Shown here: positions 3,001 to 9,000 of the stretch, piece after piece
Numbering within the stretch: the first letter of the stretch is position 1
Layout of the letters: each line of letters begins with the position of its first letter
Source of the DNA: a virus
DNA: 13,353 bases
Strand: one strand, 5' to 3'
UHGV virus genome: UHGV-1729168
Position numbers: made by a program

Positions 3001-6000
3001 ATACCTGTATGGAGCACGGCCTGCCCGGACTGGGCAGAGCGCCTGAAAAAGGGGCTGTCGATTATTCCGGCTCCGATTTATCCGGACCAGGCCGCACATG
3101 CCCTGGCGATTTTTAAACAACTGCGGATTGTGGATGCACCGGGGAGCCCGACGTTCGGGGAGTCCTGTGCACAGTGGGTGTTTGACCTGGTGGCGGCTCT
3201 GTTTGGCTCCTACGATGCGCAGACCGGTGTCCGCCATATCAAGGAAGTGTTCATTCTGATACCTAAAAAAAACAGCAAGTCCACACTGGCCGCCGGGATC
3301 ATGATGACGGCGCTGTTACTGAACTGGCGGCAGGCGGCGGGTTACACGATTCTGGCCCCGACTGTGGAGGTGGCAGCCAACGCCTTCAATCCTGCCAGGG
3401 ATATGGTACGACGGGACGATGATCTGGATGACCTCTGTCAGGTGCAGACACATATCCGGACCATCACCCACCGGGTGACGGACACCACCCTGAAGGTGGT
3501 GGCAGCCGATCCGAATACGGTGTCCGGTATCAAGTCCGTGGGTACGCTGATTGATGAGTTATGGCTGTTTGGCAAACAGTACAAGGCGGAGGACATGTTA
3601 CGTGAAGCCATAGGCGGCCTTGCCTCCCGCCCGGAAGGGTTTGTGGTGTATACGACCACCCAGTCGAATGAGCCGCCTGCCGGGGTGTTCAGGCAGAAAC
3701 TGCAGTACGCCCGGGATGTGCGTGACGGCAAAATTCATGATCCGCACTTTCTGCCGGTGATTTTTGAGCATCCGCCGGAGATGGTGGAGAGCGGTGAGCA
3801 CCTGCTGATGGAAAACCTCGCCATGGTCAATCCGAATCTCGGTTATTCGGTGGATGAGGCGTTTCTGTACCGGGAGTACCGTAAAGCCCGGGAAGCCGGT
3901 GAAGAGACTTTTCGCGGTTTCATGTCAAAACACGCCAATGTGGAAATTGGTCTTGCCCTGCGTTCTGACCGCTGGGCGGGGGCGGATTTCTGGGAGCAGC
4001 AGGGCAGGCGCGTCAGCCTGGACGATATCCTGCAGCGCGCTGATGTGGTGACGGTGGGGATTGACGGCGGGGGCCTGGATGATCTGCTGGGAATGTACGT
4101 GATTGGCCGTGACAGGGAAACCCGCGAATGGCTGGGCTGGGGCCATGCCTGGGCACATGAAACCGCGGTGGCCAGACGAAAAAGTGAGGCAGCCCGTTTT
4201 CAGGATTTTGTTGCCTGTGGGGATATGACCATTGTCCGTCGGGTCGGGGATGACACGGCGGAAGTGGCGGAGTATGTGCGTCGTATTCATGAGGCTGAGT
4301 TACTGGAGCATATCGGTATTGACCCGTCAGGTGTGGGGCAGATTCTGGATTCACTGGCGGAAGCCGGGATCCCCGATGAGAGTGTGGTGGGGATAAGCCA
4401 GGGCTGGAAGCTGGGCGGTGCCATTAAAACCACCGAGCGAAAACTGGCTGAAGGGGTACTGGTGCATGGTGGCCAGCCCCTGATGGCCTGGTGCGTTGGT
4501 AATGCCCGTGTGGAGCCCAGAGGTAATGCCATTCTTATCACGAAACAGGCCAGCGGACGGGGAAAAATTGACCCGCTGATGGCGCTCTTCAATGCGGTCT
4601 CCCTGATGTCCCTGAATCCGGAGCCAAAAAAGAAAGAATATGCGGTTTTTTTCATATAACCCTGTTCACCCTGTAACCATCATGGACCGCTGCGGCGGTT
4701 TTTTTATTTTCAGGAGGCTGATGTGACTCTTAAACGGGCCTGTTCCCTGCTGACGGTGAAATCCTTCAGTGAGGATGAGCGGGTGATCACCGGGATTGCG
4801 TCAACGCCTTCTCCGGATCGGGATGGGGACATCCTGGAGCCGGAGGGCGCGGAGTTTGGCAGTGCGATCCCGTTTCTCTGGCAGCATGACCATTCCCGCC
4901 CGGTGGGGCAGTGTACGGTGCGCCGGGTCAGCGAAGGGCTGGAAATCACGGCAACACTGGCGAAGCCCGTGCCGGATATGCCATCGCAACTGGCTGCCCG
5001 GCTGGATGAGGCCTGGGCGGCCATTAAGACCGGGCTGGTCAGGGGGCTGTCCGTGGGCTTCCGTCCTCATGAATACACCTTTCTGGACGGAGGCGGACTG
5101 CATTTTCTGCGCTGGGAACTGATGGAGGTGTCTGCCGTCACCGTGCCCGCGAATGCGGAATGCACCATCCGGACCATTAAATCTTACGACCGCCAGTTTT
5201 CTGCCGCGTCCGGCAACCGGAAACCGGTGGTGAAAATCGCATCTTCTGCCGGCGCTGCGGCACAGTCAACAACCGTTTTTCATAAGGAAAAGACCATAAT
5301 GAATATTGGCGAACAGATTAAAAGTTTTGAAAACAAGCGTGCAGCGCTGGCAGCCTCCCTTGAGGAGGTCATGACCAAAGCCGCAGAGGAAGGGCGCACG
5401 CTGGATGTGGAGGAGGAAGAGCATTACGACAACACCGCAGCGGAAATCCGTCAGGTGGATGCGCACCTGAAGCGTCTGCGTGAGCTGGAAGCCGGTAAGG
5501 CTGCCACGGCACAGCCGGTGAAACAGGCCGGTAATGGGGATGTGGTGACGGTGACTTCTGCGCCGGTGATCCGTGTGGAGCAGAAACTGGATAAGGGGAT
5601 TGGTTTCGCACGTTTTGCCAAATCACTGGCTGCGGCTAAAGGTGTCCGCTCTGAAGCCCTGGAAGTGGCCCGTCGTCAGTATCCGGATGACAGTCGTCTG
5701 CATCATGTCCTGAAATCGGCAGTGGGCGCGGGGACCACCACGGATCCGCAGTGGGCAGGCAGCCTGTCTGAATATCAGGAATACGCACAGGACTTTATTG
5801 ATTACCTGCGTCCTCAGACCATTATCGGGCGATTTGGTCAGGGCGGGATCCCTGCACTTCGTCAGGTGCCGTTCAATATCCGTGTGCACGCCCAGGTGTC
5901 CGGCGGTGCTGCCGGCTGGGTGGGTGAGGGTAAGGCAAAACCCCTGACGAAGTTTGATTTTGAATCCATCACCTTCAGTCATGCGAAGGTGTCGGCCATT

Positions 6001-9000
6001 GCGGTACTGACGGAAGAATTGATCCGTTTTTCCAGTCCGGCTGCTGATGCACTGGTCCGTAATGCGCTGGCGGAAGCGGTGGTGGCGCGTCTGGACACGG
6101 ACTTTGTGGACCCGAAAAAAGCCGCAGTGGCAGATGTCTCCCCGGCGTCCATCACCCATGATGTGAAGGGCATGGCATCAACCGGTAACCCGGATGCGGA
6201 TGCAGAGGCCGCGTTTGGTCAGTTTGTGGCAGCAAACCTGCAGCCCACCGGTGCGGTCTGGCTGATGTCCAGCACCAATGCCCTGGCACTGTCCATGCGT
6301 AAAAATGCGCTGGGTCAGAAAGAATACCCGGACATGACCCTGCTGGGTGGCTCCTTCCAGGGGCTGCCGGTGATTGTCTCCCAGTACGTGGGTGACCAGC
6401 TGGTGCTGGTGAATGCCCCGGATATTTATCTGGCGGATGACGGCGGCGTGGCAGTGGATATGTCCCGCGAGGCATCACTGGAAATGCAGTCTGAGCCGAC
6501 CGGCGACAGTACCACGCCGTCGCCGGTGGAGCTGGTTTCCATGTTCCAGACAGGCAGCGTGGCCATCCGTGCGGAGCGCTGGATCAACTGGCGTCGTCGC
6601 CGTACCGCGGCGGTGGCGGTGATCACCGGAGTGAACTACGGCAGTGCGTCCGGCGGCTGAGTCTGATAAGGAGGACGGGAGGCGTGCGCCTCCCGTAACA
6701 GGTTATGGCAAAGATCCGATATCTGCATGGTACGCATGATGCCCGGGTCGGGGATATCCGTGATGTGGCACAGCCGTGTGCGGAGGTGCTGGTTCGCCTG
6801 GGAAAGGCGGAGTACATCACGGTGCGACGTCCGGCAGGTCAGAAAAAGAAACGTGATGCGGAGCATGGCGAATGTGGAACCTTTTACGGCGAACCCGAAA
6901 AAACCAGAAATCAGGACGTGACGTAAGAGAGGCGGGCTGGACCAGCCTGTTTCAGGCGGTGGCTGAGCCCTTTGCCGGTGCCTGGCAGCAGGGCGTGAAA
7001 ACCGATCCGGAAAGTGTCCTCTCCTTTCATGCGGTGTTTTCGTGCATTTCGCTGATATCCCAGGATATCGCCAAAATGCGGCTGCGTCTTATGCAGACGG
7101 ATGCGCATGGGATACGCAGGGAAACGCGCCGGGGGGATATTGCCCGCCTCTGTCGTCGTCCCAACGCCCAGCAGAACCGCATCCAGTTTTTTGAACTGTG
7201 GCTGAACGCCAAACTGCGTCACGGCAATACGGTGGTGCTGAAAATCCGTAACTCCCGGGGGCAGATCAAAGAACTGCGTATTCTGGACTGGAGCCGGGTT
7301 GAACCTCTGGTGGCGGATGACGGCGAGGTGTTCTACCGCATCACGCCGGACCGGAACTGTGGGATCACTGAGGCGGTGACGGTGCCTGCCCGGGAAGTGA
7401 TCCACGACCGGTTTAACTGTTTTTTTCATCCGCTTATAGGATTGCCGCCGGTGTATGCCGCCGGGCTGGCGGCCATGCAGGGGCATCATATTCAGGAAAA
7501 TTCGACGTCTTTTTTCAGAAATGGCGGCAGGCCGTCCGGGGTGATTGAGATCCCCGGCAGTATTACGGAAGAAAATGCGAAAAAACTGAAGAGCAACTGG
7601 GACAGCGGGTATACCGGCGAAAATGCGGGTAAAACGGCCATTCTGAGCAACGGGGCAAAATACAACCCCACGACGTTTTCACCGGTGGATGCGCAGACGG
7701 TGGAACAACTGAAGATGACCGCTGAAATTGTCTGTTCGGTGTTCCGTGTCCCGGCCTACAAGATTGGCGTGGGACAACCGCCTTCCAGTGACAACGTGGA
7801 GGCGCTGGAGCAGCAGTATTATTCCCAGTGCCTGCAGACGCTGATTGAGTCCATTGAACTGTTACTGGATGAGGCGCTGGAAACGGGGGAAAACGAGAGT
7901 ACAGAATTTGATGTCACCACGCTGCTGAGAATGGACAGCGAACGGCGCATGAAAACGCTGGGGGATGCGGTGAAAAATACGCTTCTCACGCCCAATGAGG
8001 CCCGTAAACGGGAGAACCTGCCGCCTCTTGCGGGAGGTGACGCACTGTATCTTCAGCAGCAGAACTACAGTCTGGAGGCGCTGTCCCGTCGTGATGCCCG
8101 TGAAGATCCGTTCGCGTCGTCCGGGAAAAGAGTTTCAGCCGAGCTGCCTGACGGCGCATCTGACGGTAATAAGGCAATCAGTGAAACAGAGCATGATGTG
8201 GTGAAGGCGATGTTCAGGGGGATACTGAAAAAATGAATGAACGTGAACTGTCCATTATCCGTGCACTGGGCGAAGAATTCGCCGCGGTGATAACGGATTT
8301 ACAGCGTACATTTGAAGAAAAGATGGCTGCGCAGGCGCAGCAGTCTGAAGAGAAACTGGCTTCCCTGTCCGCGGTACTACAGAAGCATGTGACGCTGGAT
8401 GAGGTTCGCTCTGTTCTGCAGGCGATGGTGGATGATGCGGTGGGGGCCATTCCGGTACCGCGTGATGGTCGTGACTATGATCCCGATGTACTGCAGAAGG
8501 CGGTGAATGATGCGGTCGCAAATATTCCGCTACCGGCGGACGGAAAAAGTATCACCCCGGATGATGTGCGTCCGATGCTTGAACAGATGGTGAAGGAGGC
8601 GGTAAGCCATATTCCTGTTCCGCGCGACGGTCGTGACTACGATCCGGATGTTCTGCAGAAGGCGGTTCTGGATGCGGTGAGTGCCCTGCCGGCTCCGCAG
8701 GACGGGCGTGATGCCACGGCACTGGAAATACTCCCCGCCATTGACGATCAAAAATCCTTTCCCCGGGGCACGTATGCCACACACCAGGGCGGACTCTGGC
8801 GGGCGTATGAAAAAACGCACGGGATGCGGGGATGGGAATGCCTGGTTGACGGGGTGGCCGATATTGACGTCAGCATGACCGGCGAACGGTCGTTCACTGT
8901 GGTGGTCCGGCAGAGCAGTGGCCAGCGTACGGAAAAAACATTTTCCCTGCCGGTGATGCTCTACCGCGGTGTGTTCAGAGCCGGTGAAACCTACCACCCC

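Follow-up and report, generated by a model that had tools for sequence, protein, structure and literature searches.

The locus under study, positions 4723 to 6660 of the viral genome UHGV-1729168, joins a prohead protease, a delta/scaffold-like domain and a major capsid protein in one reading frame, and it raises the question of whether this frame yields one protein or two. We analyzed the 13,353-nucleotide stretch in full (hereafter, the window) together with homologous loci from other genomes. The gene is intact, its conservation is ancient, and it serves head assembly in an HK97-like lambdoid prophage of the type of the Shiga toxin (Stx) phage BP-4795. The explanation that best fits the observations as a whole, and that we consider likely from sequence comparison, is that this intact fused gene is read from two in-frame starts, giving products that share their C-terminus: the full-length fusion and a protein of 453 amino acids (aa) that would consist of the delta domain and the capsid protein. 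The proposed nested gene, put forward on comparative grounds, occupies positions 5299 to 6660 on the plus strand.

One reading frame with three domains and a linker

The list of open reading frames (ORFs) showed that positions 4723 to 6660 (plus strand) form a single uninterrupted ORF of 645 codons plus a TGA stop codon, beginning with GTG. The Shine-Dalgarno (SD) sequence of the full-length gene, AGGAGG, was read at 4712 to 4717 (plus strand), 5 nucleotides (nt) upstream of the GTG, and its duplex with the anti-SD sequence has a calculated energy of -10.3 kcal/mol. A preliminary description of this DNA had placed protease motifs and a capsid domain in one frame of this length, and it was borne out in both respects: the translation contains the motifs FLWQHDHSRPVG (aa 51 to 62) and RGLSVGF (aa 107 to 113), and the Pfam matches to the protease and capsid families fall in the same frame.

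An AlphaFold2 model built on 83 diverse homologues, with a mean predicted local distance difference test score (pLDDT) of 85, was combined with profile searches to delimit the domains, all of which lie on the plus strand. The HK97-family prohead serine protease domain covers aa 18 to 154 (4774 to 5184) and has a confidently predicted beta-rich fold. Its match to PF04586 (Peptidase_S78) extends over aa 48 to 153 with 34.1 bits (cut-off 21), and with the stricter NCBIfam equivalog TIGR01543 it reached 46.7, below the cut-off of 59. The residues presumed to be catalytic, H55 (in FLWQHD) and S110 (in GLSVGF), which probably correspond to His65 and Ser114 of HK97 gp4, were invariant across 83 sequences of 38% to 53% identity; this invariance suggests that the protease is probably active.

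The protease domain is followed by a disordered, hypervariable and A-rich linker (aa 155 to 192; 5185 to 5298), which bears the proposed internal ribosome-binding site. Its pLDDT was below 50 at aa 155 to 189, and the orthologue alignment was variable there, with insertions and deletions. Between 5231 and 5298 the fraction of GC was 0.47 and that of A was 0.31, against 0.60 and 0.20 in the whole gene. The delta/scaffold-like domain (aa 193 to 292; 5299 to 5598), delimited by predicted secondary structure and pLDDT, is composed of long helices at 195 to 223 and 229 to 262 and then a disordered stretch (gap at 270 to 279). The disorder of the linker thus ends, and the helices begin, at M193, the residue with which the coiled-coil segment had been said to start.

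The remainder of the protein (aa 293 to 645; 5599 to 6657) is a major capsid protein domain of the HK97 fold. It matched PF05065 (Phage_capsid) over aa 386 to 635 with 51.9 bits (cut-off 24.2) and TIGR01554 with 74.8 bits (cut-off 27.5). Foldseek, run with the AlphaFold2 model, aligned it with the capsid chains of Bxb1, HK97 and D3 (E 3e-15 to 1e-10) and, with values up to 1e-9, T5. A search of solved structures by sequence returned no close relative and only a weak match to the Bxb1 capsid (E 0.002). The neighboring ORFs, scanned against Pfam, matched no scaffolding-protein family.

Conservation of the proposed internal start codon

The internal start codon is the in-frame ATG at 5299 to 5301 (plus strand), which is codon 193 of the fusion. 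It is preceded by the SD-like sequence AAGGA at 5284 to 5288 (plus strand), 10 nt upstream, with a duplex energy of -6.2 kcal/mol in the window; both elements were found where the preliminary description had reported them. Homologous ATG or GTG codons were sought in 28 loci from species genomes, 80 from viral contigs and 80 from metagenomes. Both halves of the gene were present in 185 loci, and with the window 186 were analyzed. In these relatives the two domains are not normally separated by a stop codon: 175 of the 185 loci were fused, eight were split and two were disrupted. Thirteen loci had been flagged as not fused, and three with a stop at the very end of the gene were counted as fused.

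A global alignment of 150 representatives was too gappy in the linker for counts in a single column, and it was replaced by a procedure in which each sequence was anchored by local alignment on IAEQI, a conserved delta-domain motif, and the nearest upstream start codon was then taken. The compared sequences are related, so the P values below are indicative only and overstate independence. With this anchoring, the position of M193 was occupied by ATG (176 loci) or GTG (10 loci) in 186 of 186 cases, two to five codons upstream of IAEQI. Among 54 fused lineages (<70% identity), the SD duplex had a mean energy of -7.8 kcal/mol, against -2.1 kcal/mol over all in-frame positions, and a duplex of -4 kcal/mol or stronger was present in 93% of these lineages, compared with 17% of 1,745 other in-frame ATG or GTG codons.

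The same position stood out in the 22 orthologues from species genomes. Five alignment columns contained a start codon in at least 90% of the sequences, and strong SD sequences preceded only those at aa 1 (mean -9.2 kcal/mol) and aa 193 (-5.9 kcal/mol, rank 17 of 642 columns); the other three ranged from -3.0 to -3.5 kcal/mol, over a background mean of -1.9 kcal/mol. By these comparisons, the pairing of a start codon with an SD sequence at position 193 is more than chance. A start-anchored profile of 73 lineages had G, A, G and G at -12 to -9 with frequencies of 0.60, 0.74, 0.71 and 0.77; T was almost absent from these four positions, and A occupied +4 and +5 in about 80%.

Two other candidates were rejected. 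The ATG at 5371 (M217) comes after GAGGAGG, a strong SD-like sequence, but the mRNA around it is structured (-20 kcal/mol), and the corresponding stretch of the majority consensus of 83 sequences, compared as a whole and not column by column, has no methionine. Slippage on poly-A tracts of the linker was set aside because runs of at least seven A, present in 13 of 52 Enterobacterales relatives, were found neither in the Escherichia coli clade nor in the window. In the relatives that have them (L006, L007, L013, L014, L060, L066 and others), the runs are 7 to 9 nt long and lie up to 75 nt before the internal start; there, transcriptional or ribosomal slippage could give a protease-only product.

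Codon choice and mRNA structure at the internal site

The residues that spell the SD motif differ between lineages (KG, KE, EG, QG, TG, EEG, KEA, EV and others), and the register in which the motif is read shifts between codons, yet the nucleotides G-A-G-G stay. In Enterobacterales-type sequences, the glycine codon within the SD window was GGA in 39 of 39 cases, whereas GGA made up 7.8% elsewhere in the same genes. Where M193 was replaced, the substitute was always valine, encoded by GTG in seven of seven independent lineages (P about 4e-4 from codon usage), and never leucine or isoleucine among the loci analyzed.

The mRNA around the site is weakly folded. In 98% of lineages, the 60 nt surrounding it had a weaker fold than the gene's other windows (mean z +1.9, Wilcoxon P 9e-11). 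In UHGV-1729168 the site has the weakest fold of 197 windows along the gene, at -6.1 kcal/mol against -18.8 +/- 4.5 kcal/mol. The persistence of the nucleotides under changing residues and register, the invariable GGA, the restriction of valine to GTG and the weak fold together argue that selection at the internal site acts on nucleotides and not on protein. A crude scan of positions 4500 to 7000 found no sigma-70-like promoter, so both products would come from one mRNA.

Relatives with separate genes

Protease and capsid protein are encoded by separate genes within the same module in Snodgrassella, Acidovorax, Burkholderia phage vB_FKKS2 and Moraxella phage Mcat5. In five contigs (L091, L108, L162, L168 and L184), protease and capsid protein are encoded in the same frame with nothing but a stop codon in the linker between them, as in ...AAG TAA ATG.... 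In every split relative, the codon homologous to M193 opens the capsid gene, and the homologous SD sequence precedes it; the N-termini of these capsid proteins are MTIEEQIN, MNLQEQIK, MTIAEKIK and similar. Representatives that consist of the capsid protein alone likewise start at query residues 193 to 196.

The nearest relatives of the split forms are fused. Acidovorax (split) and Candidimonas (fused), for example, share 72% identity in the capsid part. From these relationships, at least six interconversions between the fused and split states have taken place, often through one codon, and the five contigs with a stop in the linker, whose nearest relatives are fused, suggest that such single-codon switching is frequent. 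A single stop gain is viable only if the downstream initiation site works, which supports activity of the site in the fused state.

One product or two

In the proposed model, initiation at GTG 4723, served by AGGAGG, would give the 645-aa protease-scaffold-capsid fusion, and initiation at ATG 5299, served by AAGGA where the mRNA is least structured, would give the 453-aa scaffold-capsid protein, the counterpart of HK97 gp5. Both would be translated from one late mRNA and would co-assemble into capsomers through their common capsid and delta parts, so that substoichiometric, covalently tethered proteases would be placed inside the prohead. After assembly, the protease would cut away itself, the linker and the delta domains to leave a mature HK97-fold shell. 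The ratio of protease to capsid protein would be set by the relative strength of the two initiation sites.

That the capsid protein might also be started at M193, in the manner of the lambda C/Nu3 pair, had been proposed in the preliminary description. The retention of ATG or GTG and of an SD sequence in a hypervariable linker, the codon signals, the weak mRNA structure and the split relatives lend this idea strong comparative support; what we still infer is initiation by ribosomes at 5299 in the fused gene and any part that it plays in setting the ratio of protease to capsid protein. On this basis the capsid protein is probably also made alone.

Several considerations weigh against two products. 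In the literature, we found no ribosome profiling, N-terminal proteomics or gel data on initiation at 5299. The internal SD sequence of the E. coli clade is moderate (AAGGA with a 10-nt spacing), at the 9th percentile within the gene, and it is weaker here than that of the main start. Ribosomes elongating from 4723 could occlude the internal site. As the fused and split states have switched repeatedly, some of the conservation could be inherited from split genes in the recent past. A capsid built entirely from the fusion is physically possible, since 415 protease-plus-delta cargos would take up about a third of the interior of a T=7 prohead by our own rough estimate.

The relative strength of the two SD sequences gave no uniform picture. 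Among 12 lineages with a clear main start, the main SD was the stronger in some and the internal one in others; in distant homologues the comparison is unreliable, as the gene start extrapolated from tblastn often missed the real one. SD strengths alone do not predict the product ratio, and no general statement is possible. The main start codon of the window is GTG, and so it is in 17 of 17 distinct sequences of the E. coli clade; ATG takes its place in 50 of 52 orthologues from other Enterobacterales. The GTG is compatible with a lowered output of the long product, and it may be a lineage-specific down-tuning.

In a first alternative, only the 645-aa fusion is made, each capsid subunit carrying its own protease, which would remove itself and the delta domain after assembly, with the internal ATG and SD sequence as a leftover or neutral feature. 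In one version, the ancestral start of the capsid gene is kept by frequent switching or recombination with split relatives, and the recurrent interconversion described above could indeed renew the internal site. The moderate strength of the SD sequence in E. coli would agree with a single product, as would the fusion of the actinophage SallySpecial, which has no candidate start at the junction, and the fusions of small actinophages have been described as single genes with no mention of a second product (PMC5513430; PMC7302621). A neutral leftover should nonetheless decay as fast as its surroundings, and these are hypervariable and rich in indels, yet the start codon persists at every locus and the SD sequence in nearly all fused lineages. 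The uniform GGA, the valines encoded by GTG only and the minimal mRNA structure point to ongoing selection on nucleotides in clades that have long been fused. We regard a single product as improbable.

A further alternative, which we judge very improbable, is that the methionine and the preceding K/E-G are kept for the protein, as a cleavage site or a delta-domain contact, or that the SD-like sequence causes a pause that aids folding of the protease. In favor of this view, the delta domain has at its N-terminus a motif, MN(I)xEQIK, of high conservation in its own right, and other conserved protein motifs of the gene, such as those at aa 44 to 46 and 127 to 129, likewise coincide with purine-rich, SD-like sequences. 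Selection on the protein would not explain why the encoded residues and the register change while the nucleotides persist, or why methionine gives way to a GTG-encoded valine and to no other residue. A pause, for its part, needs neither a start codon 5 to 10 nt downstream nor A-rich second and third codons, and the split relatives use the homologous site as a start.

Distribution and annotation of the fusion

The 2.2-kb region was 90% to 99% identical to 93 phage records, mostly of phages converting for Stx1a, Stx2a and Stx2c and including BP-4795, 2851 and YYZ-2008. It was found in 1,255 of 5,426 complete E. coli genomes, with up to seven copies per genome, and one protein cluster at 90% identity had 9,916 member sequences of 645 aa. 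Orthologues of 644 to 648 aa with 73% to 78% identity were present in Salmonella, Enterobacter, Klebsiella, Serratia, Pantoea, Kosakonia and others, and further fused orthologues occurred in Proteus, the alphaproteobacterium Reyranella, Candidimonas and a metagenome-assembled genome of the Burkholderiaceae. In a library of representatives at 50% identity, 1,207 clusters matched at E <1e-30, an upper bound, as capsid-only and protease-only relatives reach the same score level. About nine in ten of the best 150 of these representatives were full-length fusions of 630 to 680 aa, in a ranking by score that favors full-length matches. The architecture persisted down to 33% to 50% identity across three proteobacterial classes. 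Among cultured phages, the fusion is present not only in BP-4795, 2851 and YYZ-2008 but also in Salmonella phage FSL SP-016, Rhizobium phage RHph_X2_26, Pseudomonas phage PAJU2 and others.

The remaining alternative is that a sequencing error or a recent mutation in a defective prophage deleted a stop between two genes. In its favor, HK97-like phages usually encode protease and capsid protein separately, and a few relatives have a stop in the linker. It is refuted by conservation: thousands of independent assemblies, as well as cultured phages, have a gene of identical architecture and length, and the architecture reaches across the three classes. The preliminary description had kept the loss of a stop codon as its alternative, and the retention of a fused ORF of the same length across Enterobacterales, Alpha- and Betaproteobacteria disposes of it.

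The fusion is already known and long annotated, and it is not a discovery of this study. The BP-4795 record lists ORF56 as 'putative major head protein/prohead protease', one coding sequence (CDS); in the PAJU2 record, ORF003 is a 'prohead protease fused capsid protein', and RefSeq E. coli genomes have one 'phage major capsid protein' CDS. PHROG 617 profiles the whole fusion (E 7e-261; aa 1 to 639 on profile positions 7 to 626 of 626). The model NF045541, 'prohead protease/major capsid protein fusion protein' (scaf_prot_MCP2), stands for another lineage of fusions; our protein scored 52.7 bits against the 525 required, over aa 48 to 257 only. The nested product of 5299 to 6660 was unannotated in every database record inspected. 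We found no paper on a nested or second product, in a search that lay outside most subscription journals, and the search on protease-capsid fusions yielded only descriptions of actinophage and archaeal-provirus fusions.

This head module is widespread: many Shiga-toxin phages have it, as does roughly one in four complete E. coli genomes, and every inspected record gives it one protein. Should ribosomes use the nested start, the chief structural protein of the virions is missing from current annotation, and the locus would illustrate how the dose of a maturation protease is set in a phage that tethers it covalently, with the principle of C/Nu3 and the herpesviruses extended to the capsid protein. 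The matter also bears on the engineering of HK97-type shells with cargo on the delta domain. If the site is unused, the locus is an ordinary, already known fusion gene.

The surrounding head module

The genes are ordered TerS, TerL, fusion, a 73-aa ORF, portal, connector, head-completion, gp10-like and tail tube. Within positions 2438 to 9455, the portal gene follows the capsid gene and does not precede the protease, as is also the case in BP-4795, PAJU2, vB_FKKS2 and Mcat5. The conserved 73-aa ORF (6705 to 6926; phrog_829, E 4e-38) overlaps the portal start by 55 nt, and a small ORF occupies the same position in these four phages.

The portal gene (6872 to 8236, 454 aa) is followed, with an ATGA overlap, by an ORF of 299 aa (8233 to 9132) that matches the C-terminal third of the 859-aa 'portal protein' phrog_2271 (profile positions 663 to 859). 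In a prophage with a capsid-gene region of 99.9% identity, PGAP calls the portal stretch one 'frameshifted' pseudogene, about 320 nt longer, and BP-4795 has ORFs of 454 and 461 aa at this position. A split portal, a programmed frameshift, or a portal with a separate minor head protein could each account for the 454-aa and 299-aa pair.

Two hairpins flank the capsid gene. Between terL and the capsid gene, a terminator-like hairpin at 4684 to 4711 has a 7-bp stem (GGACCGC/GCGGTTT...) and a T-run after it; it ends just before the SD sequence of the capsid gene, and its fold is unexceptional against shuffled sequences (z -1.3). Right after the stop codon, a GC-rich hairpin at 6675 to 6696 has a 9-bp stem and no T-run, and the fold of 6661 to 6710 has a minimum free energy of -22.3 kcal/mol (z -3.2). 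The second hairpin may be an mRNA-stabilizing or processing element after the most highly expressed head gene. Farther downstream, the major tail tube protein (10666 to 11382) has a C-terminal immunoglobulin-like domain (Pfam Ig_2, Ig_3 and I-set, aa 151 to 233).

Comparison with known systems

The closest known systems belong to the same gene family. Over its full length the fusion is 98% identical to that of BP-4795 and 48% identical to that of PAJU2; in the fusion itself there is no difference, and both phages share the module order TerS, TerL, fusion, small ORF and portal. With HK97, the locus has in common an S78-type protease with conserved His and Ser, a helical delta domain on an HK97-fold capsid protein and the lack of a separate scaffolding gene. 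The HK97 protease has a gene of its own, and its C-terminal tail brings it into the prohead without a covalent link, whereas here the protease is covalently joined to the delta domain, and the portal gene comes after the capsid gene and not before it.

Protease-capsid fusions with the same domain order have been described in small actinophages (Rhodococcus phage RRH1, Arthrobacter clusters AN/AM/AU, Microbacterium EE and Gordonia) and thaumarchaeal proviruses (PMC5513430; PMC7302621; PMC6563490). They have no detectable sequence relation to the proteobacterial family, and they have the canonical order of portal before capsid. In a small, unsystematic sample, several actinophage fusions had their best in-frame combination of SD sequence and ATG in unstructured mRNA directly after the protease domain: RRH1 (L192, 4439 to 6424) at aa 274 with GAAGGA (structure z +2.8), GMA5 (L195, 1468 to 3429) at aa 265 with AGGAGG (-10.3 kcal/mol, z +2.5), Decurro (L198, 1685 to 3268) at aa 160 (-5.8 kcal/mol, z +1.9), and Hadban and Adaia (L199 and L200) at aa 162 (-5.9 kcal/mol, z +2.2 to +2.4). 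The signal was weak in Whytu and absent in Gordonia phage SallySpecial (L196). We raise, with somewhat less than even confidence, the broader idea that protease-capsid fusions in general, those of this proteobacterial family and the unrelated ones of actinophages, are obligate two-product nested genes. The full-length product would then be a minor protease carrier embedded in the capsomers, the internal product the bulk building block, and single stops that come and go in the linker an evolutionary dial between tethered and free protease.

The two-product arrangement that we consider likely would be a variant of a known strategy, that of lambda C/Nu3 and herpesvirus UL26/UL26.5. In lambda, C and Nu3 are nested in frame. 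The C protease and the Nu3 scaffold have been described (PMC3224144), and the protease gene of a herpesvirus holds an in-frame nested scaffold (PMC11565193). The proposed logic is the same, with a long protease product and a shorter, more abundant one that have the same C-terminal part, which drives co-assembly and sets the dose of protease. The enzymes belong to different families, S78 here, S49-like in lambda C and assemblin in the herpesviruses, and the two products are proven in the latter two systems. As in C/Nu3, an in-frame internal start has its own candidate ribosome-binding site. In lambda and the herpesviruses the shared part is the scaffold alone and the capsid protein is made separately, whereas the shorter product proposed here would comprise the scaffold plus the capsid protein itself.

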